IMG/VR virus record: IMGVR_UViG_3300044580_000224
Coordinates: 1-28,616 of that record
Reading direction: 5' to 3' (one strand)
DNA: 28,616 nucleotides
DNA from: a virus
Shown here: one piece after another, positions 3,917-28,616 of the stretch
Layout of the letters: every line of letters begins with the position of its first letter
How positions within the stretch are numbered: the stretch's first letter is position 1
Notes under the pieces: model-generated
What the model saw: the letters and a program-made list of their open reading frames with translations, nothing else
The model's database searches: none
What the model was told of the DNA's origin: nothing
Program-made: the position numbers and the translations under genes

Positions 3917-4891
3917 ATGAATAGTTATCAATTTACGATTAACAAGAAACTTTCTACTATAAAGGTAGGAGAAAATAAGTTTAAATTTGCGATAGACAAA
4001 AGCGGAGCTACAACTATAAATATTACACAAGACAAAATCGAAGATGTGATTTATAGTGTATTCGATAACAGCGAATATTTAGATTTAGTTCGTATAATTA
4101 CGAACATTAAAGGCACACAACAAGTTCCAAAAATTTTCTTGCAAGGCACTGGTGGAGTGGGAAACGGGCTTGTAGACTCGCAAGGTTGCGGTTTTGTAGA
4201 TACAACTGATTTAGTTTTAACCGACGTTCCCATATCGGTTACCAAAAAAAGAATGGGGTTGGAGCTATGTTTAGACGACCTTGTAAATACTACACTCGAA
4301 GTGCACATTTCGAACGGTGCACGCAATGAAAGTTTAGATATAGAAGATGCTTTACTAGCTTACTTTGCACAAGTTTTACGAAAAAATATACAAAATTACG
4401 TTTTTGCAGATAGCACGGACGGAATTTTGAATAAAATTTTGACTGATGGCACTGCTGTAACACCGACAGCGACTTCGAATCTTGGAATTTTAATGGAATT
4501 GTTCGAGGCTTTACCAGCTAATTGGAAAAATTCTACTGAAGCTAATCCTATAATTTTTATTAGTCCAAATTTGATGACAGGTGTGCGTTCAGAAATAATT
4601 AGCTCTAGTGCTCCTATAACTTCTAGTATAGAGGTTGTTAACAATAGGTTTAATCTGCCTCTAACCAACGCCGTTGTGGTAGCCACTCCTTATTTGACTG
4701 GAACCAGCGCCGTTGCTGGTATACAGAATTATCTGTTTTTAGGAACCGACTTGGAAAGCGACTTTGAAGACACTAGAATTTGGTATTCGAACGACAACGA
4801 AACTATAAGATTTTCTGCTATGCTGTATCTAGGCACTGCTGTAGCGGATATTACAGACTTCGCAACTTACGTAAATACAGTTACACCATAA
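3917..4891 (+). CDS. Major capsid protein (putative)
   Basis: Lies immediately downstream of the protease/scaffold gene. It has a perfect SD AGGAGG (3905..3910) 6 nt before the ATG, 324 aa, and belongs to the unit closed by the terminator at 5460. The assignment rests on position and expression signals. Confidence 0.65.
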   Translation: MNSYQFTINKKLSTIKVGENKFKFAIDKSGATTINITQDKIEDVIYSVFDNSEYLDLVRIITNIKGTQQVPKIFLQGTGGVGNGLVDSQGCGFVDTTDLVLTDVPISVTKKRMGLELCLDDLVNTTLEVHISNGARNESLDIEDALLAYFAQVLRKNIQNYVFADSTDGILNKILTDGTAVTPTATSNLGILMELFEALPANWKNSTEANPIIFISPNLMTGVRSEIISSSAPITSSIEVVNNRFNLPLTNAVVVATPYLTGTSAVAGIQNYLFLGTDLESDFEDTRIWYSNDNETIRFSAMLYLGTAVADITDFATYVNTVTP

Positions 4892-4914
4892 TTTTTAAAA
4901 AGAAAGGAGGGAAT

Positions 4915-5436
4915 ATGCCTTGTAAATTAACCAATGGGATTAGATTAAAGGATTGCGACACACCTGGAGGCGTGTCTGAATCTTACTTTATCAATATAGA
5001 GGATGTTGATACCTTGACTGTAACTGACTTTCAAGTAAGTGCTTTGACTTTAAAAAGCACTGCAACTGCATATAAGATAGCATTCGAACCGCAAACTTCG
5101 AATTTTGCTAGTAATGCTGTTGGCAGTGTGGAAAATTCTAGTGCAGCTTACGAACAAACTTGCGAAATTAAGATAAATAAGATAGATAACAACGTGCTAG
5201 AACAGATAGATGCTCTAACAAAAGGTAGACATATGGTTATAGTTAAGAAAGCCGATAGCACCTACGAACTATACTTCCACGAAGGTGGAGCCAAGTTTTT
5301 TTCTAATTACACAACCGGCACTGCTTTCGAAGACCCATCTGGTGTAACTTTAACAGCTACGCACCGACAGCCTTCAAACATGCTAATCGTATCTGCTACT
5401 GTTATAGCTACTTTGACTATAGCAGAAGAGAGTTAA
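4915..5436 (+). CDS. Major tail (tube) protein (putative, 173 aa)
   Basis: ATG at 4915 is preceded by AAAGGAGGG. The track's start at 4780 lies inside the capsid gene and has no signal. The product is small, Thr/Ser/Gly-rich and looks beta-rich (GGVSESYFINIEDVDTLTV...YELYFHEGGAKF...TGTAFEDPSGVTLT), typical of siphovirus tube proteins. A strong terminator follows. Confidence 0.5.
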   Translation: MPCKLTNGIRLKDCDTPGGVSESYFINIEDVDTLTVTDFQVSALTLKSTATAYKIAFEPQTSNFASNAVGSVENSSAAYEQTCEIKINKIDNNVLEQIDALTKGRHMVIVKKADSTYELYFHEGGAKFFSNYTTGTAFEDPSGVTLTATHRQPSNMLIVSATVIATLTIAEES

Positions 5437-7646: not shown

Positions 7647-8074
7647 ATTTTAAAGAATTTTTAGATAGTATAGATACCTTTTTGAATGACGAAGGATTGT
7701 TTGAAAGTCATTATTATGGCTATGTAAATAATGTTTTTGCTGAAAAAGAATTGAAATATCCTATGATGGTGTATCATACAGATGCTATAAATCATAGTAT
7801 ATTAGAGAATTCTATCACGAATTTAAAATTTAATTTTTTTGCTTTTGATAAGCTAAAAACTGATAATAGTAATGTCATAGAAGTGCAAGATGATTTGTTA
7901 AAAAGACTTATTTATCTACAATTTTATCTAAAACGTGTGCATTATGCTACTAATTTTAACTTAACAGCCGTGAGTGACGAGGCATACAGTGAAAAAATTA
8001 CAGGGTGGATATTGAATTGTGAAGTGAAGTTAGATACAAGTTTAAACAGTTGTGAAGATTTAAAAATAATATAA
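7643..8074 (+). CDS. Hypothetical virion protein (143 aa)
   Basis: ATGA overlap with the upstream gene. The call is positional only. Confidence 0.55.
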   Translation: MNFKEFLDSIDTFLNDEGLFESHYYGYVNNVFAEKELKYPMMVYHTDAINHSILENSITNLKFNFFAFDKLKTDNSNVIEVQDDLLKRLIYLQFYLKRVHYATNFNLTAVSDEAYSEKITGWILNCEVKLDTSLNSCEDLKII

Positions 8075-8079
8075 AAAAT

Positions 8080-8307
8080 ATGGAATTCAACTTCAATATT
8101 TCTGAATTAGTCTCTATAATAGCCTTGTTGGTGGCTATTATAGGCGGTTACGTAAACATTAAAATTCAAATTACAAAACTGGTAGAGGAGAATAAAACTC
8201 TAACAGAAAAAATTAATAATTTAGACAAAAAGCTGTCTGAAATTTGCAAAAAAGTAGATAGAATAAAGATAATATTAGCTAAAGAAGGATTAAACGGCAA
8301 TGAATGA
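8080..8307 (+). CDS. Small membrane protein: one TM helix plus a coiled coil (holin/antiholin-like)
   Basis: TM segment LVSIIALLVAIIGGYVNIKI followed by a charged coiled coil. Lies upstream of the endolysin. Confidence 0.5.
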   Translation: MEFNFNISELVSIIALLVAIIGGYVNIKIQITKLVEENKTLTEKINNLDKKLSEICKKVDRIKIILAKEGLNGNE

Positions 8308-8602: not shown

Positions 8603-8638
8603 AAAAGAAAAAAATATTTGCAAAAAAGTAAAAAAAAA

Positions 8639-8670
8639 TTTGGTTAATATAAAAATTTGTTGTATATTTG
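8639..8670 (+). promoter_or_regulatory. Bacteroidota-type sigma-A promoter (TTTG-N20-TATATTTG)
   Basis: TTTG at 8639..8642 and TATATTTG at 8663..8670. The 17-mer TTGTTGTATATTTGTAA is repeated at 11362..11378. Confidence 0.6.
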
Positions 8671-8808
8671 TAAAAAAATTATGAGAAAATATACTGATAT
8701 TTTAGTTGAACAGTTACATAAAGAATTTAGCAGTTAATCGCACCATAAGGAATTGAAATACTAAATTCTACTTAGTTGTTTTCATAATTTTATTTTTCAG
8801 GGTTAGAC

Positions 8809-8921: not shown

Positions 8922-9554
8922 ATGGATACAAAAAATTTATTAGAACGAGCAAAAAATTTTGGATTTATCAAAAGCGAGTATTACAGCTACTTTTTACAGT
9001 ATTGCGACAAATACAAGATAAACACTTCTGAACGCATTAGCCATTTTTTAGCGCAAGTAAACTATGAAAGTGGTTATATGAACTACATAGAAGAAGAATT
9101 TACTTATAGTGCTAAACGTTTACTGCAAGTTTTCCCAAAATACTTTAAAACCGTAGAGGAAGCTAATGAATACGCCTATAAACCTGAAAAAATTGCTAAT
9201 AGGGTTTATGCAAATAGAATGGGCAACGGTGATGAAGCTAGTGGTGATGGATGGAGATATAGGGGGCGAGGGCCTATACAATTGACTGGCAAAAATAATT
9301 ATATATTATTTGCTAATTGGGTAAAGAATAAAGATATAATAAATAATCCTGATTTAATATTAAAAGACAATGATTTGCTAGTATTAACAGCTTTTTTTTA
9401 TTGGGATAAAAATAAATTAAACGACTACATAATAATAGAAACAGGTTCATATAACATTTGCAAAAAATTAACTAAAAAAATAAACGGTGGATATAATGGT
9501 TTAGATGAACGGTTTAAATTATATCTTAAAATAAGTGGTATTTTATATGAGTAA
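8922..9554 (+). CDS. Endolysin, glycoside hydrolase family 19 (chitinase-like lysozyme)
   Basis: HFLAQVNYESGYMNYIEE...GWRYRGRGPIQLTGKNNY...LTAFFYWDKNKL...INGGYNGLDER matches the GH19 phage lysin signature. The ATG at 8922 is preferred over the track's TTG at 8898, which overlaps a TAATTTTG -7 box (8903..8910). Confidence 0.88.
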   Translation: MDTKNLLERAKNFGFIKSEYYSYFLQYCDKYKINTSERISHFLAQVNYESGYMNYIEEEFTYSAKRLLQVFPKYFKTVEEANEYAYKPEKIANRVYANRMGNGDEASGDGWRYRGRGPIQLTGKNNYILFANWVKNKDIINNPDLILKDNDLLVLTAFFYWDKNKLNDYIIIETGSYNICKKLTKKINGGYNGLDERFKLYLKISGILYE

Positions 9555-10146
9555 TAGAGAAAAGTGGTTTTTGCTAATAATTTGCGTTTTACTGCTAATA
9601 ATAATGTTTAGAGGAGAAGGTTTTAGAAAGAAAAATAAACTTATAGAAGAGAATAAAGAGCTGATTAGTGACTATAAACAACGCATTTATAGTAATAATT
9701 TAGTAATTGATAGCTTGATTTTTGAATTAAAAAATGTTAAAAAAACTGATACAGTTATAAAAATAAAATATAAACAGCTAATAGATAGTGTGTATGTTTA
9801 CAATTATGACGATTATATTAGTTTTTATGATACTTTTCTGCATACAAATCTATTAAAATCAGACACGTTTATATGCTTTGATAGTATTACAGTACAAAAG
9901 TTAGCTATTAAGTTAATAGAATGTAATAAAGATAGTGAATTGTTAGCTAATTGTTATTTGCAAAATAATATATATTCTAATATAATAGCAGTGCAGGATA
10001 GCGTTATTATATTAAAAGATAGTGTAATTAACAGTAATGATAAAATATATAGCAGTAAGATTAAACATCTACGAAGGCAACGAAATAGCTTTGCTGGTGC
10101 TACCTTTGTGGAGTTTTTGGTAATTTTAGGTTTAATTTCAAAATAA
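9547..10146 (+). CDS. Membrane-anchored coiled-coil protein adjacent to the endolysin (spanin-like or lysis accessory candidate)
   Basis: The ATG at 9547 overlaps the lysin stop (ATGAGTAA). There is an N-terminal TM (WFLLIICVLLLIIMF), a central helical region and a C-terminal hydrophobic tail (ATFVEFLVILGLI). Confidence 0.4.
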   Translation: MSNREKWFLLIICVLLLIIMFRGEGFRKKNKLIEENKELISDYKQRIYSNNLVIDSLIFELKNVKKTDTVIKIKYKQLIDSVYVYNYDDYISFYDTFLHTNLLKSDTFICFDSITVQKLAIKLIECNKDSELLANCYLQNNIYSNIIAVQDSVIILKDSVINSNDKIYSSKIKHLRRQRNSFAGATFVEFLVILGLISK

Positions 10147-10153
10147 AAAAGTT

Positions 10154-10381
10154 ATGGAAAACAAAGAATTTGAATTAATGTGTAATTTTATTTATAAGAA
10201 TTATAAAAAAAATGAAATAAAGCAAGCTATTGATGGTGTATGTAATTATATAGCTAACAAGCAAATAAAAAATTATAATAAAAAAATGTTAGCTGAATTA
10301 TTAACTAAAATAGCCGAGTTAACACCTTACAACGCAATTGTGTGGAGCGTTTGGGAAAATAAAAAAAATAATAAAAAATAA
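10154..10381 (+). CDS. Hypothetical protein (75 aa)
   Basis: ATG in an AAAAAGTTATG context, on the same strand, tightly packed. Confidence 0.55.
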   Translation: MENKEFELMCNFIYKNYKKNEIKQAIDGVCNYIANKQIKNYNKKMLAELLTKIAELTPYNAIVWSVWENKKNNKK

Positions 10382-11266: not shown

Positions 11267-11343
11267 CAGGTAAAAAATTAAGATTAATAAATAAAATAAT
11301 AAGATAAAACACAAAAATAAATCGATTAAAGCCTATTTTTTGA

Positions 11344-11375
11344 TTTGTTCCTATTAAATTTTTGTTGTATATTTG
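11344..11375 (+). promoter_or_regulatory. Bacteroidota-type promoter (TTTG-N20-TATATTTG)
   Basis: TTTG at 11344..11347 and TATATTTG at 11368..11375. Shares TTGTTGTATATTTGTAA with the promoter at 8639..8670. Confidence 0.6.
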
Positions 11376-11413
11376 TAACATAAAATTTAAACAACAACAA
11401 AAAAACAAAAATT

Positions 11414-12901: not shown

Positions 12902-14446
12902 ATGAAAGCAAAAATCGAAAATTTTAAAGGGCTCGAAAGCATTGAATTTGAGCTTGAAGGCATTACGCAAATTACAGCAAAAAATGGAATAGGCAAAACA
13001 TCTATATTAGATGCACTTTGCTGGTATTTTACTGGGAAAAATATCTATGGTGATACAAAATTTGATATAATTAGACACGGCAGTGAATTTGCAAGTGTAA
13101 GTTTAGAATTCGCAGGATTTACATTAACTAAAAAGATAGTAAAAGACGGCAATTCTACTAAAACACTATACTATAAAGGCTTTGACGAAATTAAAAGCAA
13201 AGATTTTGAGATGGTTGTTTATGATCATTTTGGCTATGCAGATAGTGATATATTACTATCTGCGATGGTATATGAGTATTATTTTACAAGCTTAACAATG
13301 GAAAGGAGGCGAAAAATAATATTAGACACTTTTAAGATTAATGAAGACACGAGCGAAATTGACAGCAAAAAAGCTGAATTAGAAGCAATAAAAAAGAAGA
13401 TTGATGATATAAAAGTGCAGATAGACGCATATAAAAATGTTAAAGTAGTTGAAAATACTAAAAACGATATTGAAATTAAGAAGGAAATTGAGAAAATAAA
13501 GCAATTGATAAAGCAAAAAGAGTTTGAAATTAGTCAAATAACTGCTTTGCAAACTGAAATAGCTAAAATTAACTATGAAATAGAAACTAATAAGAGCAAA
13601 ATAGACACAAATAACAAAATGATAGCAATGTATAATGAAAAAGTTATTACACTGCGAAATAACTATAAAGAAGTAGTTAAAAGGCGCACTGATATATGTT
13701 TTAATTGTAAACAAGTTTTGCCAGACAACTTACAAAAAATTGAGTTTGACAAAAAGACAAAAGAGCTTGAAAATATAACCGCAGAAGGCAAAAAACTTGC
13801 AACTGAAATAGAGAAATTGCAAAATGAAAATACAGAATTACAAAAAAACTTACAAATTGCAGAAAACAAAATAAAAACATTGCAACTGCAATTAAAAAAT
13901 GCAGATGTAGAAAATATAAAGCGATTAAAAGTAGAATTAGAGTTGCAATTAGAAGATTTATTAAAACAAAGCAGCAATGATAAAGTTACTACTAATATAC
14001 CAGAATTGCTAAAAATTCAAACTGAAAATTTAAAACAATTAAGTACGCAAAAATTAGCTATAGAAAGTGAACTAAAACAATTGCAGGAGGCACGCATACA
14101 GCTTGCTGAAAGCTTTGAAAATGAAGTAAATAGTAACTTTGATGTTATAAAATTTAGCTTTTTTGAACAACTCACAAACGGTGATTTAAAGCCAGCTTGC
14201 AAAATTTTAGTTAATGATGTAGATTATTTAAGTGCAAGTGATAGTGAAAAAATTAGAGCAAACGTAGAATTAATGTTATTATTACGCAAAAATTATAATC
14301 TAAAATATCCGTTGCTAGTAGATAGGGGAGAGAGCTTTGATGATAACAATTATGCAAAGTTAATTGAACGATTAAAAGAAAAAAACATTAATGTAATTAT
14401 AACAAAAGTTAGTGAAGTTAACAATTTAAAAATAGAAAAAATATAA
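12902..14446 (+). CDS. Rad50/SbcC-like SMC-family ATPase (mini-Rad50) with a central CxxC hook
   Basis: N-terminal Walker A (ITAKNGIGKTSILDAL), a 300-aa coiled coil and CFNC at aa 266-269 of 514. The C-terminal part has a signature-like LSASDSEK and Walker B LLVDRGESFD. Confidence 0.7.
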   Translation: MKAKIENFKGLESIEFELEGITQITAKNGIGKTSILDALCWYFTGKNIYGDTKFDIIRHGSEFASVSLEFAGFTLTKKIVKDGNSTKTLYYKGFDEIKSKDFEMVVYDHFGYADSDILLSAMVYEYYFTSLTMERRRKIILDTFKINEDTSEIDSKKAELEAIKKKIDDIKVQIDAYKNVKVVENTKNDIEIKKEIEKIKQLIKQKEFEISQITALQTEIAKINYEIETNKSKIDTNNKMIAMYNEKVITLRNNYKEVVKRRTDICFNCKQVLPDNLQKIEFDKKTKELENITAEGKKLATEIEKLQNENTELQKNLQIAENKIKTLQLQLKNADVENIKRLKVELELQLEDLLKQSSNDKVTTNIPELLKIQTENLKQLSTQKLAIESELKQLQEARIQLAESFENEVNSNFDVIKFSFFEQLTNGDLKPACKILVNDVDYLSASDSEKIRANVELMLLLRKNYNLKYPLLVDRGESFDDNNYAKLIERLKEKNINVIITKVSEVNNLKIEKI

Positions 14447-14505: not shown

Positions 14506-15420
14506 ATGAAAACACAAATTGAAAAAAGTGAAAATTTACCTTTAAAAGATTTTCTAAAGCAAGACCACGTAATTAAAGAATTTGCCAAGCTTGTGCAAGA
14601 CCCCACAAACTTTATAATGTCTGCAATAACTACTATCCAGCAAAATAACTTTCCAGCTGATATAGACCGAAATAGTGTGCTATTTGGGTTAATGAATGCA
14701 GCTATTTTGAAATTACCGATTAATAATAATTTTGGACTTGCATATCTTATACCATACAGGGATAATAAGAAGGGCAAAACTTATGCACAATTTCAAATTG
14801 GAGCAAAGGGCTTTATAGCATTAGCAATTCGTAGTGGTTTAGTTATAAATTTTAGCACAACTGAAGTATACGATGGACAATTATTAGAATTCAACCCTCT
14901 AACAGGTTCAAAATTTGATTTTTCAAAAAAGCAATCAAATAAAATAATTGGGTTTGCATGTTATCTTGAATTAAAAAATGGTTTTAAACGTACTGAATTT
15001 ATGACATATGAACAAATGATGGCACATGCAAAACGATATTCGGAAAGTTTTAAGCATAATCAAGGGGCGTGGGTGACTAATTTTATTGAAATGGGCTGTA
15101 AAACAATAGGAAAATTAACATTAAAAAAATACATGCCATTTTTGACTGATGAAATAGGACGTGCATTGCAGACAGACCAAGCAGTTATAGTAGGTGAAAA
15201 CGAATTTATTTACATTGACAATGAAAACGACGACGATGTAGTTAATGAAGTTATTACAAAAGAAAATAAAGAAACTAAAAAACCTACTAAAAAAACAACT
15301 GCAAAGCAAGACGCAGAGCAAGTTATAGAGCAAAACACTGATAACATAATTACAGAGCAAAACAATGTAACTACCGACGTAGCTACCGATGTAGATAATG
15401 AAATTGATATACCATTCTAA
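14506..15420 (+). CDS. recT: RecT-family single-strand annealing recombinase
   Basis: GLAYLIPYRDNKKGKTYAQFQIGAKGFIALAIRSG is the RecT core pattern. The acidic C-terminal tail ends DVDNEIDIPF. Confidence 0.85.
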   Translation: MKTQIEKSENLPLKDFLKQDHVIKEFAKLVQDPTNFIMSAITTIQQNNFPADIDRNSVLFGLMNAAILKLPINNNFGLAYLIPYRDNKKGKTYAQFQIGAKGFIALAIRSGLVINFSTTEVYDGQLLEFNPLTGSKFDFSKKQSNKIIGFACYLELKNGFKRTEFMTYEQMMAHAKRYSESFKHNQGAWVTNFIEMGCKTIGKLTLKKYMPFLTDEIGRALQTDQAVIVGENEFIYIDNENDDDVVNEVITKENKETKKPTKKTTAKQDAEQVIEQNTDNIITEQNNVTTDVATDVDNEIDIPF

Positions 15421-15422
15421 TT

Positions 15423-16100
15423 ATGATAAAAGTTAATATTTATGGGACAGGGAGTGACGGTAACCTGTCCCTCATTGACGACGGAATTACTGCAATTATG
15501 GTAGATTGCGGTTTAAACACAAAAATAATAAAAGATGTTAGTATTTACAACAGACTAAAAGCATGCATAATCACGCATGAGCACAAAGACCATTCAAAAT
15601 TTGCCGATAAAATTGCTGAAATAGTGGATATAACTAACTATTGCACTACTAAAGTAGTAGATAACTTCGAAATAACAACTGTAGAGGCTTTTCACAATAT
15701 TAAAAACATAGCTGCATACATTTATAACAAAGCAGATGATATAAATATTATGTGGGCAACAGATTACTATAAAATTAGCAAATTATATAACGAAATTGAC
15801 TACATTTTTAGTGAAATTAGCTACGATGACGACATTTTGAATGAAGCTCTAATTAATAAAAACGTAGAATATATGCACTATAAAGGCTTATTAAATCATA
15901 TGTCCTTACAGCGTTTTTGTAACTTATTAAAAAATGTTAATTTAAACTTATTAAAAGGCATAGTAGTGCTACACGAAAGTAACTATTTAAATAGAATTTT
16001 AGCAATAGATAAAATTAATGAAATAACAAAAGGTAGGTGCTCAATTTACTTTGGTAAGGGAGAGTATTTACTAACAAAAGAAAAAATCATAAAAAATTAA
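15423..16100 (+). CDS. Metallo-beta-lactamase-fold hydrolase (candidate nuclease partner of RecT)
   Basis: HxHxDH motif (ITHEHKDHSKF) after GTGSDGN...MVDCG. Lies immediately downstream of recT. Confidence 0.7.
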   Translation: MIKVNIYGTGSDGNLSLIDDGITAIMVDCGLNTKIIKDVSIYNRLKACIITHEHKDHSKFADKIAEIVDITNYCTTKVVDNFEITTVEAFHNIKNIAAYIYNKADDINIMWATDYYKISKLYNEIDYIFSEISYDDDILNEALINKNVEYMHYKGLLNHMSLQRFCNLLKNVNLNLLKGIVVLHESNYLNRILAIDKINEITKGRCSIYFGKGEYLLTKEKIIKN

Positions 16101-16112
16101 AAATATAATAAT

Positions 16113-16529
16113 ATGAAAAAGCAAACAGAAAAAAGAAGTAAAGTAGTTATTTACAAAGTGAATTCAGATGGGCACAGCATGTTGCAAGCTGGATGTGTAA
16201 AATGGTTTAGGTATCAGTATAGTGAATACAAAGACCTATTATTTGCTATACCTAATGGACTACCGATTTTTGACAAGGAGTTACGAGTAAAAATTTATAA
16301 CAGGCTTAACAGAGAAGGATTGAAAGCAGGAGTACCAGACCTATTTTTAGCTTTGCCGAGAGGCGTTTATCACGGAGCTTTTATAGAGATAAAATATGGT
16401 GATGATAGATTACGCAAAAATCAGTCTGACATGATAGAACTATTAAGTGCTAATGGTTACAAATGTTTAGTAGTTAATAGTTTAGATGAGTTTATAAAAG
16501 GAGTAGATGAGTATTTAATGATAAAATAA
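16113..16529 (+). CDS. VRR-NUC domain nuclease (PD-(D/E)xK)
   Basis: GVPDLFLALPRG...GAFIEIKYG...LRKNQ...L...GY matches the VRR-NUC layout. Confidence 0.7.
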   Translation: MKKQTEKRSKVVIYKVNSDGHSMLQAGCVKWFRYQYSEYKDLLFAIPNGLPIFDKELRVKIYNRLNREGLKAGVPDLFLALPRGVYHGAFIEIKYGDDRLRKNQSDMIELLSANGYKCLVVNSLDEFIKGVDEYLMIK

Positions 16530-16535
16530 AGTGAT

Positions 16536-17015
16536 ATGGAGCTTGAAATTGAATTTAAAAAAGATTTTGAACAGCTAAAAGGCGAGTTTGAACGACATAA
16601 TCTAGATTTAAACGAAGATTATAAAAAAATTATGTATACTATACTTAAAGAGCTCATTAATAGTAGAAAAGTTAGATTAAAATTAAACTCTACAAAAACT
16701 CCTTTTATACCTCAAATTCAACTGTCTATCGAAGAAATTTTAAAATTAGCTGAACTAGATAAAAAAAATGAAAAGTTGGTTAGAGATGCTTTATTTGCTT
16801 TAAGTGTTTATATCTATGAATTTATCTATGATACTATTAAAAACGAAGATGGAAGCTACAAAAAGTTAAATTATTATATAGCTTATTCATGCGTAATTTT
16901 TTATATTGAAAAAATATACGACAAATATAACAATATAAAATATTACGAAATAGAACCTTCAGCGTATGTTTTAGAACTGTTTAAAGAGTATTTTGTCGTG
17001 TATCAAAATCAATAA
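16536..17015 (+). CDS. Hypothetical protein (159 aa)
   Basis: ORF on the same strand between the nuclease and primase genes. Confidence 0.55.
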   Translation: MELEIEFKKDFEQLKGEFERHNLDLNEDYKKIMYTILKELINSRKVRLKLNSTKTPFIPQIQLSIEEILKLAELDKKNEKLVRDALFALSVYIYEFIYDTIKNEDGSYKKLNYYIAYSCVIFYIEKIYDKYNNIKYYEIEPSAYVLELFKEYFVVYQNQ

Positions 17016-17146
17016 AAAATTGATATAAATCAATATTTAAATTGACAAAAAACAATTAAAAACTGCTAAAAATTAGTATGTTTTAAGCAAAAATTTAGTT
17101 TAATTTTATAAAAAATTTAGTAATATGAACAAAAAAATATAAAATT

Positions 17147-19741
17147 ATGGAAAAAAATATTTTTGAATTGTTGTTAGACAAAGGTATTTCGAGCATTCCT
17201 GTTAATTCGGATAAAAAGCCTTTGGTGGCTTGGAAAGAATTTCAAAATAGGTTGCCAAGCCAGGAGGAGTGTAAGAAGTGGGGTAGTATGAAAAAGGAAG
17301 GTGTGGCAGTGATTTGTGGAGCTATATCGGGAGGGCTTGAAATTATTGATATAGACAATAAATTTGATGCTGCCTCATCTATTTATCTTAATTTAATAAG
17401 TAATTTATCGAACGAACGACCAGAATTGTATGATAAACTTGTAATTGAACAAAGCAAAAATAAAGGTTATCATATTATTTACAGGTGTAAAAAATTTGAA
17501 GGTAATCAGAAGTTAGCAAGGCAGCAAGATTTACAAGGTAATATATTAACTGTTATCGAGACGCGAGGAGAGGGAGGTTACTGCATTATACATCCCAGCA
17601 AAGGGTATGATGTAATTAAAAATAATATCCTGAAAGTAAAGGAAATAACAGAGGAGGAGAGAGATTATTTGTTTCAGCTATGCTATCAGTTTAATGCTAT
17701 TAAAGACGAGAAACCTACTACTAACTACATAAAACCAAATACAAATGAAAAAATTGAAGGTGAAAAAATAGGCGATTTATATAATCAAAAAGATGATTTT
17801 ATAAATGTTTTACTACAGCACGGCTGGACAATAGAAAAAGAAGAAAAAGATAAAATTCATTTCAAACGACCTGGTAAATCAGAAAGAGGGAATAGTGCAA
17901 CTTTTTTAAAAGAACCACGCCTATTTTATGTTTTTTCGAGCAACGCACTACCTTTTGAAAGCGAGCAAAGCTACAGCCCTTTTGCTGTATATTCAATTTT
18001 AGAAGCCAACGGCGATTTTAAACAAGCTGTAAAGCAGTTACTAGAGCAGTATCCACAGTTTGATAAAAAACCAAATATGAACAATAAAAAAACTACTACT
18101 AATAAAGCTCCAAAGAAGACAAAAAAATCGGAATTGTTCGAATTTTGGACTTACAAAAACGAAAATGAAATAGTAATAAACGTAGACCTATTAGTTAGAT
18201 TTTTAGATAAAAATAATATATATTACTACTATAAAGAAAATGAAGATACTATTTTAGTGTATGAAAAATTAAACGTTCTGAAAAAAATAGATGAAGACTT
18301 TGTAGTAAAATATATACAAAATTACATAGATAATTTGCCAAACGACTACAAATTCGATGATAAAGATAATTTCGATAAAGAATCTGTTAGAACCGCTTTT
18401 AATAACTTCTCCGACCAAAAATTTAGACTTGTTATGAATCGTTTAAGTAGAAGAGACGTTGAGATAAATCACGACGAGCCTGGAATTTTTTATAAATACT
18501 TTGATAATGTCGTAGTTAGATACGAAAAAGGAAATAACTATAAACTTGAACTTTTAGAATATAAAGACCTAAAAAAGAAAGTTTGGTTTGATAAAATCAT
18601 AGATGTAAGATTTTTTAGAATACAGGACTACGAAAATTTTATGGTATATAAATTTCATAAAAATGTAACTTCTTCTTTGCAGGACGGCGACTGGCTTGAG
18701 AATTACAAAAGATTTTTAGCTCTACGAAGCGCTTTAGGATATATGCTTTATGAATACAAAAACGAAAATGATGTAAAGGTTGTGGTTTTTTGTGAAGAGC
18801 AAGTTACTGACCAGGGGGGGCGCACTGGTAAGACTTTGACATGTCAAATGTTAGAAAAAATGGGCAGTAAGATGGTAAAAATTAATGGCAGAAAAGTAGA
18901 TTTTTCAAATAGGTTTTTATTTCAAAATGTAGATGTAGACACTAATATTATTCAATTCGACGATACAGATAGCAAATTCGACTTCTCTTCTTTGTATTCT
19001 GTAGTTACGAACGGACTAACAGTAGAAAAGAAGGGTCGTAAAGCTATACAGCTTACACATCAGCAAACTCCAAAGTTTATTATTACATCTAATTCAGTTT
19101 TGACTGACGAGAGCAATTCGGGTAAAAGCAGAAAATTTGAGGTTGAATTTAGCGATTACTACAACGACGAGCGAACTCCTGTCGACGAATTTGGCAAAAG
19201 ATTTTTCAGTGGATGGACTGAGTCAGAGTGGAATTTATTTTACAACTATATGATAGATTGTGAAATTTTATACATTGAAACTGAATTCGTAGACTACGAA
19301 AGAAAAAATATAACAGATAGGAAATTAACAGCTGCTATATGGGATGATGACCTTTTAGATTTTTGTGATTTGATATGCTATAAAATTTTAACAGAACAAC
19401 GAAATTATTCTAATAAAGAGCTGTTAGAAGCGTTTAAACAGTATTATTCTGCAGATAAAGAAATCGAAACTGCTAAAATTACTAGAGCTATGAACAAGTT
19501 TATTCAGATAAAAAACTTAAAAGCTATAAAAAACGATAGATTTTATATCGAAAAACAGCGAGTAAGAGGTTTTGTTTACTTATATGAACATAAAAATCAT
19601 AAAAGTGTAGTGGAGTTTATTAATTCCCACGAAAATAACAGCGAAAAAATTGAAACTAATGAACAACTACCTTCTGATAGTATTTCTAGCAAAACAGTAA
19701 TTATTAGCGAAAAAGATTATTCGAACGATATTCCATTTTAA
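17147..19741 (+). CDS. Bifunctional primase-polymerase (prim-pol) fused to a D5/P4-type SF3 helicase
   Basis: The N-terminus has PVNSDKKPLVAWKEFQ...GVAVICGAISGGLEIIDIDN...KGYHIIY (prim-pol DxD and H motifs). The C-terminal part has Walker A GGRTGKT, Walker B IIQFDDT and IITSN. The protein ends ...DYSNDIPF. Confidence 0.85.
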   Translation: MEKNIFELLLDKGISSIPVNSDKKPLVAWKEFQNRLPSQEECKKWGSMKKEGVAVICGAISGGLEIIDIDNKFDAASSIYLNLISNLSNERPELYDKLVIEQSKNKGYHIIYRCKKFEGNQKLARQQDLQGNILTVIETRGEGGYCIIHPSKGYDVIKNNILKVKEITEEERDYLFQLCYQFNAIKDEKPTTNYIKPNTNEKIEGEKIGDLYNQKDDFINVLLQHGWTIEKEEKDKIHFKRPGKSERGNSATFLKEPRLFYVFSSNALPFESEQSYSPFAVYSILEANGDFKQAVKQLLEQYPQFDKKPNMNNKKTTTNKAPKKTKKSELFEFWTYKNENEIVINVDLLVRFLDKNNIYYYYKENEDTILVYEKLNVLKKIDEDFVVKYIQNYIDNLPNDYKFDDKDNFDKESVRTAFNNFSDQKFRLVMNRLSRRDVEINHDEPGIFYKYFDNVVVRYEKGNNYKLELLEYKDLKKKVWFDKIIDVRFFRIQDYENFMVYKFHKNVTSSLQDGDWLENYKRFLALRSALGYMLYEYKNENDVKVVVFCEEQVTDQGGRTGKTLTCQMLEKMGSKMVKINGRKVDFSNRFLFQNVDVDTNIIQFDDTDSKFDFSSLYSVVTNGLTVEKKGRKAIQLTHQQTPKFIITSNSVLTDESNSGKSRKFEVEFSDYYNDERTPVDEFGKRFFSGWTESEWNLFYNYMIDCEILYIETEFVDYERKNITDRKLTAAIWDDDLLDFCDLICYKILTEQRNYSNKELLEAFKQYYSADKEIETAKITRAMNKFIQIKNLKAIKNDRFYIEKQRVRGFVYLYEHKNHKSVVEFINSHENNSEKIETNEQLPSDSISSKTVIISEKDYSNDIPF

Positions 19742-19762
19742 TATCTAATTTTAAAAAATTTT

Positions 19763-19790
19763 AAAGGGGAGTAAAAACTCCCTTTTTTTT
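19763..19790 (+). terminator. Rho-independent terminator
   Basis: AAAGGGGAG-TAAAAA-CTCCCTTT followed by a T8 run, 22 nt after the primase-helicase stop. Confidence 0.8.
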
Positions 19791-19926
19791 ATATCTAAAT
19801 TTATTACCCCACCTTTTTGAAAAAATAACTTATTAATATTCAATTAGTTACATTTTTCTTTATTTTTTTTTGCCATTAAATTTTGCTATTTTTTACCACA
19901 CATTTTGGTCAATAAAAATTAATTTT

Positions 19927-20353
19927 TAGGACACGTAGAAAATTTTTTAGGACAACTACGTATTAAACTACCTAAAAGCCTTTATAGGAGCTGGATTGAA
20001 GGTGGTTATGGGACACGTATAGGACACCTCACCTAAAAACTCTCAATCCTGCTACCAGACTGGGTTTGAAGGTATTTTTAGGACGTAAGGACACAAAATT
20101 TTAATTATCTATACCCCCCTATATATATTTTTATATTATCCCATATATATACTATATATATATTTATATATATTCCTATCTATCTACTAGAAAAGTAAAA
20201 AATAGTGTCCTATAAGGACACTATATAGTAGAATTAGCCTGCGTTTTAGGCGTTTTAAACATAATTGTCCTACTCGTTTTATCATTCCCTTGTAAACCAA
20301 TACTAGCGTGGCTTTGACGGGGGACACCACTACCTTGTCCTACACGTGTCCTA
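19927..20353. promoter_or_regulatory. Putative replication origin: about 12 TAGGACAC-type iterons in opposed orientation flanking a (TA)n-rich unwinding element
   Basis: Forward copies are at 19927, 19948, 20009, 20020, 20079, 20087, 20214 and 20320. Reverse copies (GTGTCCTA/TTGTCCTA) are at 20205, 20265, 20335 and 20346. The TA-rich stretch spans about 20110..20190. I found no ORF of 60 codons or more on either strand. Confidence 0.6.
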
Positions 20354-20394
20354 AAATTCTTTTGGCCTATTTATACTATTTCAAAAATTTTTGC

Positions 20395-20402
20395 TAATTT
20401 TG
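20395..20402 (+). promoter_or_regulatory. -7 box TAATTTTG upstream of the methyltransferase/terminase operon
   Basis: Matches TAnnTTTG and lies 36 nt before the ATG at 20438. There is no well-spaced -33 TTTG. Confidence 0.35.
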
Positions 20403-20437
20403 GATAAAAATACAATAAATACACAAATAATAAAAAA

Positions 20438-21926: not shown

Positions 21927-23385
21927 AAAGGAGACATTAGAAGTAGAAATTGAAATAGGTGCTAAAAGAGCTTTGCTAAAGCGAAGTTACTATCATTTTT
22001 TCAAATTTTTTTGGAGCACTTTAAATCACGAAAAACTTGTAGATAACTGGCATATAAAGTATTTATGCGACGAGCTACAAAGCGTTGCAGAACGTGTATT
22101 CAAAAGAGAAAAAAAACAGCACGACCTTATTATAAACATACCCCCTTCTATGTCAAAAACCTCTATTGTAAACATTTTTTTCCCACTGTGGTGTTGGGTT
22201 AATGACTACTCTCTACAATTCATTAGCGTGAGCTACAGCTATCAATTATCTATAAATATAAGCGAGCGTTGTAGGGATGTTATGAGAAGCGACTTGTTTA
22301 AAAAATATTTTTTCGATGTTAAGATAAAAGAAGACAGCGACACAAAGCAGCTATTCAGAGTAGTTAAAGACAATCAGGTCGGGGGCTTCAGGTATGCCAC
22401 GTCTGTGGGCGGTACCATAAGTGGTATACACGGACACTTCATTTTATTAGACGACCCTGTTAATGCAGTAGACTCACTATCTGACACTATGATTAGAAAT
22501 ACAAACGACTGGCTTGACAATGTAATTTTTAGTAGAAAGGTGGACAACGACGTAAGTGTAGTAATACTAGTTATGCAGCGACTTCACGAAAATGACACTA
22601 CAGGATACCTATTAAGTAAAAATAAAAATATAAAGCACATCTGTTTACCAGCTTTGTTATCAGAAAACATACAGCCAGCTGACTTAAAAAAATATTATAC
22701 AGACGACTTATTAGATAGAGAGCGACTTTCAAAAGAAGTATTAGAGCAGAAAAGAGTAGAGATGGGGGACTATGCTTTTGCTATGCAGTATCTACAACAG
22801 ATAGTGCCAAAGAGCGGTAGTTTTTTTGATGTTAGCAAGTTATTAACTATCAATAATTTAGACGAAAAAGAAGTAGTAAGAGTAGTGCGGTACTGGGACA
22901 AGGCAGGGACACACCAAGCTGGCTGTTATACGGTTGGAGTAAAAATGGCTATGCTAAAAAATAGAACCTATGCGGTGTTGGACGTTGTTAGAGGGCAGTG
23001 GGAAGCAAGCGAGCGTGAGAAAATTATAAGACAGGTGGCGGAGCTTGATGGACAGCAAGTTACAGTTTTTATCGAACAGGAGCCTGGTTCGGGGGGCAAG
23101 GAGAGTGCAGAAAGCACTATAAGAAACTTGGCTGGATATAGATGCTATGCAGACCGCCCTTCTGGAGATAAAATTTCTAGAGCAGATACGTTGGCAGTGC
23201 AGTTAAATGCGGGAAATATAAGTATGTTACGTGCAGAGTGGAACAACGAATTTAAAAGGGAGCTTGAGTTTTTCCCATATGGAAAATTTAAAGACCAGGT
23301 GGACGCCACCAGCGGGGCTTTTAATATGTTAGTAAAAATGGGAGTGGGACTGGCTTCTCGAGGTGGTGGTGTAAATTCTTTTTAA
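21919..23385 (+). CDS. terL: Terminase large subunit
   Basis: ATPase motifs (IINIPPSMSKTS, Walker B FILLDDPV, coupling VMQRLHENDTTG) and a nuclease half (RYWDKAGT..., DQVDATSGAF). Confidence 0.85.
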   Translation: MNKKETLEVEIEIGAKRALLKRSYYHFFKFFWSTLNHEKLVDNWHIKYLCDELQSVAERVFKREKKQHDLIINIPPSMSKTSIVNIFFPLWCWVNDYSLQFISVSYSYQLSINISERCRDVMRSDLFKKYFFDVKIKEDSDTKQLFRVVKDNQVGGFRYATSVGGTISGIHGHFILLDDPVNAVDSLSDTMIRNTNDWLDNVIFSRKVDNDVSVVILVMQRLHENDTTGYLLSKNKNIKHICLPALLSENIQPADLKKYYTDDLLDRERLSKEVLEQKRVEMGDYAFAMQYLQQIVPKSGSFFDVSKLLTINNLDEKEVVRVVRYWDKAGTHQAGCYTVGVKMAMLKNRTYAVLDVVRGQWEASEREKIIRQVAELDGQQVTVFIEQEPGSGGKESAESTIRNLAGYRCYADRPSGDKISRADTLAVQLNAGNISMLRAEWNNEFKRELEFFPYGKFKDQVDATSGAFNMLVKMGVGLASRGGGVNSF

Positions 23386-23390
23386 AAATA

Positions 23391-23420
23391 TTTGTATGTT
23401 AAAATTTTAATATATATTTG
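23391..23420 (+). promoter_or_regulatory. Bacteroidota-type promoter (TTTG-N18-TATATTTG)
   Basis: TTTG at 23391..23394 and TATATTTG at 23413..23420, 16 nt before the ATG at 23437. Confidence 0.55.
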
Positions 23421-23436
23421 TAAAAAAAACAAAGCT

Positions 23437-25849: not shown

Positions 25850-28616
25850 ACATAAAGATTAGATTTATATTCAGAACAAATATAGGTAAAAAGGTTCGTT
25901 TAATAGATGAAACGTTCGAATGTTTAGATGATAATTTTTCGATAAACATAGATAATGAAAATATAAACGACTTCAGTAAAGCGATAGATAGTAAGTTTAC
26001 AAAAACATTGAAGTTGGCAGGAACGGAGCGGGCTGTAGCATTTTTTAAAGAATACTATGAAGTTCGTTACGAAGGAGAGAATGATTTTAGCTTTACGTTC
26101 AATAGCAGGACTGGAGAGCATTGTATCATATATGTCGACGATGTAGAAGTTATGCAGGGTGTAGCCTTGCTTACAGGGATTACTCGAAACAAAAATTTAA
26201 CTATCTTCGAAATTCAGGTAATAAACGACGTTAAAGATATATTAAACGAATTTAAAAATCTATATATAGACGAATTGGATAATTATGGCTATGAGTGGAC
26301 GTTTAATAATGTTAAAACCTTGCTAAACACTACTGTTAATGAGACTTTCATAGGAGTTGCTATGGCAGACGGGGAGTGCGTTTCGCAGAAAAATATAGGT
26401 GGTAGTTACACTACTGCGATTGATATTAGTAAAATCCCCATAGCTGCAAACTTAAAAAAAATCATAGATAAGGGCTTCGAAAAAATTGGAGTGCAGTATC
26501 AAAGCAGTTTTTTAAATTCTGATAGGTTAAAAGCACTTTGGCTATGTAACAATAAATCTGAAAATTTGGGTATATGGGGGGATAGTGACAAAATGCTGTT
26601 AGATTTTTACTATAATGATGTTTATATGTTAGACTATCTACCTTTTTTGTTATCTGAACTTACTTATACAGACGACAATAACGAAAATTATCGAGTTTAT
26701 ATAAACAAATATGACAGGAATATCTCAAGGTGGGATTTAATGCACGGTTGGAGTAGTTTTTATGGACAAGGTAAATATACAAGTTATGAAATAACTATAA
26801 ACACGTCTGAATCGGACGAACTTGACAGCTACGTAAACGGAGTAACACGACATATTTATCTAGTTGGAGGCTGTAAATATCGGATAAATTTCGATTTACA
26901 AAATTATGTTATACTAGGAGATACTATGAATAAATGGAGAGGTCATATAATTTTTAAATTCACAGATTTAGCTACAGGCGAGGTGGAAAAGCTAAATTAT
27001 TACAGCACTTTCGTGCCATATAAACAGATTTTAAACTTAAATCCTTATTTTGAAAAAGAACTCGAGCACAACACTATGTTAGACATATACATACAAGAGG
27101 ATATAGCTTTACACGAAAGCTACTGGGATGATGAAAATGAAAAAATGTTTGTAATAGACAGTAACTTGCAAAAGATTCTTATAAATATAAAAAAAATAGC
27201 TGGTAGCCAGGTGCGGTTGCAAGGCTCTACTATAAACCTTTACAGCCAACTACCTCATATTAGTATGTATGATGTTATAGTTAATCTACAAAAAATGTTT
27301 AATCTAGTGTTTAGTTTAGACAAAGACATAAATAAGTTAGTTATAGAACCTGAAATCGACTACTACCAATTAAACAGTAATACATTGTTAGACATTACCG
27401 ATTTAGTCGACTATGACAGCGAAATATCGATAGAACCTGCGAGCGGTTCGATAGACTACAACAAAATATCGGCTAAATATAGCATTAGTGATAAAGACTA
27501 TCACAATAAATATCACAAAGACCAGGCGGGGATTGATTTTGGAGAGTTTAAAACGGAGTTTGAAAGTTACGCGAAAGGAGAGTTGAGTATTAAAAATGAA
27601 TTTACTATCTGCAAGGCAGCTACTTATATATACAACGACTACTACACTTTTACTGCAAGCTACGAAAATGAAAACGGTAATCTTAAGAAGGTAAGTGCAG
27701 ATAAGGCTTTTGTAGGTGTCAGAAAGGTGCATACACACCAACAGGTTGCTGAACGCCTGTATTTATGGTATAATGAGAACATTTACAGTTTATATGGTTT
27801 ACAGCAAATAAATATTTTAGATTTTTGCAGTTCGAACTTTGACTACTGCTATGACACACCCAGAGTAGTGTTTAGCAGTATGGATAATTTACCTATAGAT
27901 AACTTGTTTTACACCTACTATTTTAAAGTTTTACAAGAGTATATACAATTATCAGGTAAAATAGTTCGATTAAAATGCTATTTTGACCCTATTACTTTTT
28001 CAACTTTGAGCAAAAAACGTGTGGTGTATTGGAAAAACAATTACTGGAAACTGCTAAAAGTTAGCGATTGGTCTCCGCTAAAGCCTGTTGTGGATGTAAC
28101 TTTGCTAAAGATGATAGACGTTGAAGTGCCTGCTATACAGCCAAAGCCACATATCCCTGATGTGCAGTGGATTTTAGGTGGTTTTGTTAGACCTGCACAG
28201 GTGGATGTAGATAATCTATCTGTAACTATGTTAGATACTTTAAGCAAGACAGGTGCACTTATTAGTAACAAAGCGGAGTTGGTAAATATAAGTAATGTTA
28301 ATGATAGTGCAGTAGCGGTGCAGGAGTTGTCTGATATTCTTTATACTAGATACATACAAGATAATGTTAGCAAATATGATAAAGTTGAACATAAGATAGT
28401 AGAGTGTTTATTAGATAATTTTACAGAGATAGAGTTTCCTGATTACAGTTACTTCAAAGGCATTTATCTATTTCCTGTCGAGTTTATCGAGGAGGTTATC
28501 TTTCAAAATATCATTTTTACAGGTAATTTTAAGATGGATAATTTAAAAATAGTTAGAGAAGATGCGTTTACTAATAGTAATTTCAGTGAAGTGTTGAGTT
28601 TACCTGTTTGCACGTA
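25846..28616 (+). CDS. Tail fibre / tail tip receptor-binding protein, 5' part. The ORF runs off the window and closes at 233 after circularisation, giving 982 aa in total.
   Basis: The ATG at 25846 overlaps the upstream TGA (ATGA). I read all 923 codons to 28616 in this frame and saw no stop. The track omits it because it has no stop in the linear window. Only short antisense ORFs compete. Confidence 0.85.
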   Translation, partial: MNIKIRFIFRTNIGKKVRLIDETFECLDDNFSINIDNENINDFSKAIDSKFTKTLKLAGTERAVAFFKEYYEVRYEGENDFSFTFNSRTGEHCIIYVDDVEVMQGVALLTGITRNKNLTIFEIQVINDVKDILNEFKNLYIDELDNYGYEWTFNNVKTLLNTTVNETFIGVAMADGECVSQKNIGGSYTTAIDISKIPIAANLKKIIDKGFEKIGVQYQSSFLNSDRLKALWLCNNKSENLGIWGDSDKMLLDFYYNDVYMLDYLPFLLSELTYTDDNNENYRVYINKYDRNISRWDLMHGWSSFYGQGKYTSYEITINTSESDELDSYVNGVTRHIYLVGGCKYRINFDLQNYVILGDTMNKWRGHIIFKFTDLATGEVEKLNYYSTFVPYKQILNLNPYFEKELEHNTMLDIYIQEDIALHESYWDDENEKMFVIDSNLQKILINIKKIAGSQVRLQGSTINLYSQLPHISMYDVIVNLQKMFNLVFSLDKDINKLVIEPEIDYYQLNSNTLLDITDLVDYDSEISIEPASGSIDYNKISAKYSISDKDYHNKYHKDQAGIDFGEFKTEFESYAKGELSIKNEFTICKAATYIYNDYYTFTASYENENGNLKKVSADKAFVGVRKVHTHQQVAERLYLWYNENIYSLYGLQQINILDFCSSNFDYCYDTPRVVFSSMDNLPIDNLFYTYYFKVLQEYIQLSGKIVRLKCYFDPITFSTLSKKRVVYWKNNYWKLLKVSDWSPLKPVVDVTLLKMIDVEVPAIQPKPHIPDVQWILGGFVRPAQVDVDNLSVTMLDTLSKTGALISNKAELVNISNVNDSAVAVQELSDILYTRYIQDNVSKYDKVEHKIVECLLDNFTEIEFPDYSYFKGIYLFPVEFIEEVIFQNIIFTGNFKMDNLKIVREDAFTNSNFSEVLSLPVCT
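28562..28616. repeat. Terminal direct repeat, right copy of 1..55
   Basis: 55/55 identity with the window start. Confidence 0.95.

Follow-up and report, generated by a model that had tools for sequence, protein, structure and literature searches.

A bacterial SSB-type C-terminal tip is shared by the RecT annealase and the primase-helicase of a small phage

How small phages without a DNA polymerase capture the replisome of their host has been worked out mostly for a few models, among them lambda P and P4 alpha. This question is raised by the phage genome IMGVR_UViG_3300044580_000224 (28,616 nucleotides, analysed at its full length and referred to below as the window), in which a RecT-family single-strand annealing protein and a primase-helicase end in the same four residues, D-I-P-F. 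The SSB of E. coli (a protein that binds single-stranded DNA) ends in ...DDDIPF, and this end is the docking peptide for SSB-interacting proteins. Why, then, is it found on an annealase and a helicase of a phage?

Both ends had been noticed in an initial annotation made from the sequence alone, and translation confirmed them. RecT (14506-15420, + strand, 304 amino acids (aa)) closes with ...TDVATDVDNEIDIPF in front of its stop codon, the last residues being DVDNEIDIPF, and its tip is encoded at 15406..15417 (+) by the codons GAT ATA CCA TTC. The primase-helicase (17147-19741, + strand, 864 aa), which combines an AEP primase-polymerase (Prim-Pol) domain with a putative D5/VapE-like (SF3-related) P-loop helicase (Pfam Prim-Pol; PHROG 19930, 28855), closes with ...IISEKDYSNDIPF in front of its stop codon (last residues EKDYSNDIPF), and its tip lies at 19727..19738 (+; GAT ATT CCA TTT). 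Two of the four codons differ synonymously, which excludes a recent DNA duplication as the origin of the two tips. A scan of all six frames of the window revealed no third open reading frame (ORF) with a DIPF end.

The shared tip is real and not a matter of chance. Calculated with the genome's own amino-acid frequencies, the probability that two of its 33 proteins both end in DIPF is ~1e-8, which bears out the initial annotation's view of chance as very unlikely, and the probability that both ends match [DE][ILVMP]PF is ~5e-7; for any two proteins with any common last four residues it is ~0.01. A functionless coincidence or compositional artefact, for which nothing but the low complexity of the tails speaks, is effectively refuted because the tip is conserved (it is invariant in 56 RecT homologues and recurs on several replicase architectures), and together with the value of ~1e-8 this leaves such an explanation practically no probability.

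In which respects do these ends resemble the C-terminal tip of bacterial SSBs (SSB-Ct)? In both proteins Pro-Phe stands at the extreme C-terminus with a free carboxylate, as IPF is followed directly by the stop codon, and it is preceded by an aliphatic residue at -3 and by acidic residues at -4 and further upstream (consensus D-D-D-[IL]-P-F). The RecT end DNEIDIPF fits this pattern well; the helicase end YSNDIPF has a single acidic residue next to IPF. Furthermore, both tips terminate a flexible linker, which is modelled as disordered in RecT (residues 242-304, predicted local distance difference test (pLDDT) ~30) and presumed to be so in the helicase from the variable, added-on character of its tail. 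In contrast to the bacterial protein, which is an OB-fold tetramer, the phage carriers are, as known from their sequences, an annealase with a RecT fold and a helicase with Prim-Pol and P-loop domains, and neither contains the OB-fold SSB core (PF00436).

Hydrophobic or aromatic C-terminal peptides on replication proteins also occur as beta-sliding-clamp-binding motifs, which have the consensus Q-L-[SD]-L-F and end in L-F, and the tips might accordingly represent such a motif or another known peptide signal, e.g. a degradation or secretion tag. This is very improbable: Gln is absent, Pro occupies position -2 and acidic residues stand upstream, so that the clamp consensus is not matched, and the motif fits published SSB tips exactly (PMC3991886). 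The tips of bacterial SSBs comprise DIPF, DLPF and DVPF (PMC3991886), in agreement with the SSB-like form claimed in the initial annotation, and phages related to the window show DLPF, ELPF and DVPF variants that are known in bacterial SSBs as well. The tips, in which a flexible tail is closed by [DE]-[IL]-P-F-COOH, are real and selected, and by their form they are docking motifs of the SSB-Ct type.

The assignment of RecT is based on Pfam (PF03837, residues 34-228, E=6e-36), PHROG 148 (E=6e-54) and PDB entry 7ub2 (E=2e-39). An AlphaFold2 model built with 60 sequences has a pLDDT of ~90 for residues 11-240 and of ~30 for residues 242-304; the values are <50 for 247-304 and stay at ~30-35 at the tip, with no rise. 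The tail modelled as disordered (aa 242-304; 15229..15417, +) consists of a K/T-rich stretch and an acidic, repeat-prone stretch followed by the tip, with four acidic residues among the last 12. The initial annotation, which had made conservation of the tails in homologues decisive for its proposal and had described both as acidic low-complexity extensions behind the folded domains, is right about RecT in both respects. A [DE]IPF end is present in 56 of 58 close RecT homologues (56-95% identity; here and below, P-numbers denote homologous proteins and L-numbers fetched loci), and the two exceptions are truncated fragments. The linker before the tip comprises ~60 residues, and its acidic part varies in length through expansion of VDNE/VDNG repeats; in the alignment the core is mosaic, yet I-P-F is invariant. 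Twelve metagenomic RecT loci have the same tip, with a stop codon that varies between TAA, TAG and TGA. Outside this clade a PF end was found in three of 193 more distant RecTs (1/44 distant hits and 2/149 representatives of diverse RecT clusters), and among cultured phages no RecT aligns past query residue 237 and no tip-bearing RecT was found. P0092, P0297 and P0366 are candidates for an independent gain of the RecT tip. The RecT tip is thus, as far as comparison of homologues can tell, a clade-specific and selected addition, because it is kept in close homologues and loci despite changes of linker and stop codon and is rare outside the clade.

In a neighbouring RecT clade (P0059-P0077, 38-45% identity) the tails are acidic and end in two aliphatic residues (DEELI, EDEDII, DDDVII, DEDLL), and the genomes examined contain a Pfam SSB ending in DLPF. 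In three sister phages RecT is replaced by ERF (L005:5520-6398, L007:6583-7737 and L009:977-1810).

Acidic tails ending in Phe could also act without any external partner, if they folded onto the DNA-binding surface of their own protein and tuned binding to single-stranded DNA (ssDNA) or oligomerisation, for which T7 gp2.5, T4 gp32 and E. coli SSB are precedents. The strong acidity near the end of the RecT tail (four residues in the last 12) agrees with such autoregulation, and the acidic tails of the neighbouring clade with their other hydrophobic ends (DEELI, EDEDII, DDDVII) suggest a general role of acidic tails. We nevertheless consider it quite improbable for the tips: charge alone would not fix I-P-F next to acidic repeats that vary, the tails of the helicases have little length and weak acidity, the same tip occurs on proteins with unrelated DNA-binding surfaces, and AlphaFold2 predicted no self-docking of RecT.

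The primase-helicase begins with the AEP Prim-Pol domain (Pfam PF09250, residues 10-153, E=2.6e-11), which has a weak profile match to pRN1 ORF904 (E=0.06). None of the Pfam helicase models matches the window protein itself; it can be aligned over its full length with P0146 (32% identity, E=1e-117), a protein that carries PF19263 (DUF5906). The Walker A motif GGRTGKT (aa 557-563; 18815..18835, +), in which G557, G558, R559, T560, G561 and K562 are invariant columns, aligns with GRSGKS of P0146. According to the alignment, the C-terminal tail (aa 830-864; 19634..19738, +) adds 35 residues behind the last conserved block, as had been annotated; its acidity had been overstated, as three acidic residues and one basic residue among the last 12 make it only mildly acidic.

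Across the helicase clade the tails have lengths from 8 to ~40 residues, and the terminal PF is the sole feature common to the members that possess one. The nearest homologues (79-82% identity; P0104-P0109) end in [ND]DIPF, and those at 50-55% identity, with much shorter tails, end in VNTPF, LEPF, TSPF or EIPF. A tail-less subclade (P0103, P0110-P0117; 62-87% identity) ends in ...YLEQLKK or similar. Altogether, a PF end is present in 27 of 40 clade members, so that conservation extends to the helicase, and in 15 of 80 distant primase-helicases, compared with ~0.1% per protein expected from composition. PF-tipped Prim-Pol proteins are fused to DUF5906, VapE or DnaB_C domains, and BT4734-type primase-helicases have PF tips as well, as does a DnaG-type primase fusion (1081 aa, L062:13992-17237, ending in NKLPF). 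In the sister phage L004, which shares the RecT module and has a RecT ending in EIPF, the replicase is an unrelated BT4734/PriCT/P-loop protein, yet it ends in ...DNDNELPF. By these comparisons the helicase tip is a trait found widely among primase-helicases of phages and mobile elements, and it is not peculiar to the window phage.

Do the tips make up for a missing SSB? The window is a complete circular phage assembly of 28,561 bp, because its first 55 bases recur without a mismatch at its other end as a terminal direct repeat (1-55 and 28562-28616). In this complete genome neither an SSB nor a DNA polymerase was detected in any ORF with Pfam, PHROGs and NCBIfam, and the annotation's statement that none is recognisable thus holds for the whole genome at the level of hidden Markov models (HMMs). 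Nor did an HMM of the small tip-bearing family described below find a member in the window or in its sister phages. The lack of SSB and polymerase is not unusual for a small phage, lambda being an example.

For RecT, the tip-bearing clade lacks an SSB (in the complete window genome and in 21 kb of L004), and in each of the six RecT loci examined that have no PF tip, an SSB or SSB-like protein is encoded by a gene of its own close by. Three of the six, from metagenomes, possess a Pfam SSB ending in DLPF or GLPF, Bacteroides phage C3_41T2LP an SSB ending in GLPF, Leeuwenhoekiella phage Arctus_1 an annotated SSB with no PF tip, and Riemerella phage GDF21 a DUF3127 SSB-like protein ending in DDLPF. 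These data anecdotally fit an association of the RecT tip with the absence of a phage SSB, although all tip-bearing cases belong to one lineage and hence represent a single evolutionary event. The co-variation anticipated in the initial annotation is therefore seen, in this anecdotal form, for RecT and not for the helicase: PF-tipped primase-helicases coexist with tip-bearing SSB-like proteins in the same genomes, an SSB is missing from the tail-less helicase subclade (P0110-P0117, L005) too, and the idea that the helicase tip compensates for a missing SSB is not supported by the sequences. Note also that L005, a phage with a tail-less helicase, contains a 128-aa ORF (4675-5061) ending in ...SRYSDELPY, reminiscent of an SSB tip whose Phe is replaced by Tyr; weighed as a possible SSB, it had no family match.

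Where else does the tip occur? A six-frame scan of all fetched loci gave 1952 ORFs with a length of 80 aa or more; 74 of them end in PF, and nearly all of these are RecT, primase-helicases and SSB or SSB-like proteins; in the loci examined the tip is thus almost entirely confined to proteins of DNA replication and recombination. The SSB-like proteins include a small family of ~120 aa in which a beta-rich core of ~95 residues is joined by a variable linker to a DDLPF tip (L055:7398-7763, L048:6276-6680, L052:13336-13734, L053:9923-10303, L054:9122-9544, and L070:12034-12366 in Cellulophaga phage phiSM). Its members have no Pfam match, belong to PHROGs 18029 and 36980 ("unknown function"), and in Cellulophaga phages are annotated as "hypothetical protein" just downstream of the helicase gene. 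A structural model (pLDDT 81) gave no significant fold match in the PDB (best E ~1), and its viral matches are all uncharacterised proteins. The family is probably an unrecognised phage SSB, which the fold comparison does not establish. Model confidence recovers from 55 to 75-78 at the tip, which is a point in favour of autoregulatory tails.

Some further PF ends were met in the same loci. A 599-aa P-loop protein (L053:4634-6433) ends in KDLPF; it was considered as a relative of the SbcC-like ATPase of the window, and comparison revealed no similarity. A 198-aa protein of phrog_15333 (L056:9751-10347) ends in IELPF and looked Rad52-like by eye, an assignment that was dropped as a sequence search of the PDB did not support it. 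Riemerella phage GDF21 (L072) encodes, besides its DUF3127 protein (7813-8169, ending in EDDLPF), a 351-aa hypothetical protein ending in DEMPF (9219-10274).

Paired tails of this kind are known from T7, in which gp2.5 (an SSB with annealing activity) and gp4 (the helicase-primase) have acidic Phe-terminated tails that both bind the T7 DNA polymerase. The comparison with T7 made in the initial annotation is apt. In the window, as in T7, an ssDNA-binding or annealing protein and a helicase-primase of one phage share a Phe-terminated tail, and the same pairing exists in L004, L048, L052-L055 and L059; moreover, in relatives of the window the tip of the helicase tends to match that of an SSB-like protein encoded in the same genome. 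At -3, the helicase tip and a second tip-bearing protein have the same residue in 7 of the 12 genomes that hold both (I/I in the window and L048, V/V in L059, L/L in L052-L055), as expected if both tips serve one partner, as they do in T7. Unlike T7, the window phage has no DNA polymerase gene, and its tip, with Pro-Phe at the end, has the form of the bacterial SSB tip; a phage polymerase is therefore an improbable partner.

Another phage-encoded protein could still serve as the partner, through which the tips would couple helicase and annealase in the way the gp4 and gp2.5 tails are coupled on T7 polymerase. Candidates are RecT itself, the metallo-beta-lactamase (MBL)-fold hydrolase, the VRR-NUC protein, the SbcC-like ATPase and a conserved 159-aa protein (16536..17015, +), which is of unknown function, adjoins the replicase gene and is found in every sister phage in synteny with the module. 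Matching of the tips within genomes is what one shared partner predicts. The annealases RecT and Redbeta recognise the C-terminal seven residues of SSB and depend on them functionally (bioRxiv 10.1101/2020.04.14.041095), and in view of this dependence the window RecT probably has an SSB-tip pocket, which could take up the helicase tip or that of a neighbouring RecT. Family and peptide are the same in both systems, but the roles are reversed, as the known RecT reads the tip of SSB and the window RecT carries one. Yet the genes of the module vary widely among genomes, down to the replicase family (L004, L063, L062), with no constant partner gene, and the tip fits the general consensus of bacterial SSBs. 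The AlphaFold2 monomer of RecT, in which its own tip is undocked (pLDDT ~30-35), is weak evidence in the same direction. A phage-encoded partner therefore appears rather unlikely.

On balance, the explanation that we favour is that the SSB-Ct-type tips tether SSB-client proteins, most likely host enzymes, to RecT and to the primase-helicase, as suggested by the form and conservation of the tips. In SSB-Ct recognition, the terminal Phe and its carboxylate enter a hydrophobic pocket beside basic residues, which is present in many genome-maintenance enzymes, and the phage tips would enter pockets of this type. With its DNA-binding core, disordered linker and tip, RecT would copy the layout of SSB, so that RecT-coated ssDNA would resemble SSB-coated ssDNA and present an array of SSB-like tips. 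The primase-helicase would be tethered to the same clients and hold them at the fork. Most likely these clients would be enzymes of host replication and repair for which host SSB is the normal docking site; as the phage has no polymerase, clamp loader or SSB, partners from the host are the most economical assumption. Such a client would be required for the host polymerase to reach the forks and primers of the phage and for recombination intermediates to be processed. The tips are probably functional, besides being real and conserved, and the mimicry of the SSB tip proposed in the initial annotation is the best reading of them; the link to a missing SSB fits RecT alone, and host chi, PriA, RecO and RecJ, which were named there as possible partners, are conjectural.

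Several observations weigh against this tethering of SSB clients. Many helicase tips of the clade deviate from the SSB consensus (VNTPF, LEPF, TSPF), and their tails are short and weakly acidic. A helicase subclade with no tail occurs in phages that are likewise devoid of an SSB (L005), and the helicase tip is thus not indispensable. The ERF proteins of L005, L007 and L009 end in [DE]-L-Q-L (GELQL, DELQL, GDLQL) instead of PF. Finally, the matching of the residue at -3 (permutation p=0.019) rests on 12 genomes and is uncorrected for their relatedness.

The distribution of the tip also permits a broader, more tentative proposal. So far the tip has been seen on RecT and on primases/helicases of at least five architectures, besides a P-loop ATPase, DUF3127 proteins and the small SSB-like family. 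It is possible that the SSB tip is a portable module which phages have grafted onto many unrelated replication and recombination proteins in order to plug into the SSB client network of the host; such grafting may be especially frequent in phages of the Bacteroidota/Ignavibacteria/Chlorobi group. In the window, RecT would then be both an annealase and a surrogate of SSB, and the tip of the primase-helicase would recruit the host replicase.

We found no description of an SSB-type tip on RecT or on primase-helicases in the literature, most subscription journals lying outside the search. The ETfinder paper discusses diverse C-terminal extensions of RecT (PMC13490951), and its text contains neither IPF nor LPF nor the word "mimic". 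Comparable is DdrB, a non-SSB annealing protein with an SSB-like motif at the end of a disordered tail; in contrast to the window RecT, it is cellular and of unrelated fold, its motif is reported to be unnecessary for radioresistance, and no paired helicase with the same tip has been described.

If the tips do tether host SSB clients, a peptide of four residues would explain the capture of the host replisome for a large set of uncultured phages, and a C-terminal [DE]-x-P-F on replication proteins would be a sequence marker for contacts of phages with the SSB hub of the host. The portability of RecT in recombineering is limited by the match between RecT and the SSB tail of the host, and a RecT with its own tip suggests a different design. 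A further outcome is that the unannotated small family of the Cellulophaga phages stands out as probably a new SSB of phages.

If the tip tracks the SSB tip of the host, it might hint at the host lineage. The SSBs of Flavobacteriia end in DLPF (PMC3991886), which is close but not identical to DIPF/EIPF of the window clade. In culture, relatives of both the helicase and the small SSB-like family occur in phages that infect Cellulophaga, and distant helicase relatives are found in metagenome-assembled genomes (MAGs) of Bacteroidota, Ignavibacteria and Chlorobiota. A helicase copy with 52% identity has SprB/CHU_C genes, which are typical of Bacteroidota, as its neighbours in a genome of 2.2 Mb. 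The nearest MAG relative (49% identity) is located on a 5.7-kb contig binned as Syntrophomonadaceae, a binning that is unreliable. No tRNA genes were found in the window. The -7 promoter box of the Bacteroidota type is TAnnTTTG; genome-wide, this motif is not significantly enriched in the window (62 observed vs 48 expected). A direct repeat, ...TTGTTGTATATTTGTAA..., occurs at three intergenic spots ahead of gene blocks (8634-8678, 11339-11383 and 23384-23428), and each copy contains TATATTTG, which fits this box.

The genome has a G+C content of 31% and all of its genes on one strand; a 982-aa ORF spans the junction of the circle (start 25846, end 233). RecT and the primase-helicase belong to a module for replication and recombination that had no match among GenBank phages (megablast). 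The module starts with the SbcC/Rad50-like AAA_23 ATPase (12902..14446, +; Pfam AAA_23, E=2e-12; PHROG 77), which has no tip, and continues with RecT, the MBL-fold hydrolase (15423..16100, +; PHROG 392, E=1e-27), the VRR-NUC nuclease (16113..16529, +; Pfam VRR_NUC, E=2e-8), the 159-aa ORF and the Prim-Pol/P-loop helicase. The other genes of the window encode structural proteins, lysis proteins or small unknowns. The helicase gene is followed by an origin-like spacer of 696 bp, and then by the genes for a ParB-methylase and the terminase. Directly 3' of the replicase gene, this origin-like region (19742..20437) contains all seven copies of TAGGACA in the genome (+ strand: 19927, 19948, 20020; - strand: 20206, 20266, 20336, 20347), and they flank a TATATA-rich core at ~20100-20190.

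The MBL-fold protein is a candidate nuclease partner of RecT or an Apyc1-like enzyme. It has 21% identity (E=2e-14) to a protein of a Porphyromonas phage annotated as "anti-Pycsar nuclease, Apyc1-like", and in that phage the gene order SbcC-RecT-MBL is the same as in the window. Going by this similarity, it may be an anti-defence enzyme instead of an exonuclease partner of RecT.

The 159-aa ORF (480 nt) had no match in Pfam, PHROG or NCBIfam. L005, L007 and L009 contain copies of it that are 99.2-99.8% identical in nucleotide sequence and differ by 0-2 synonymous changes, and the flanking genes are merely 66-86% identical in these phages. This near-identity suggests either a cis-acting element inside the ORF or a recent sweep of a small module.

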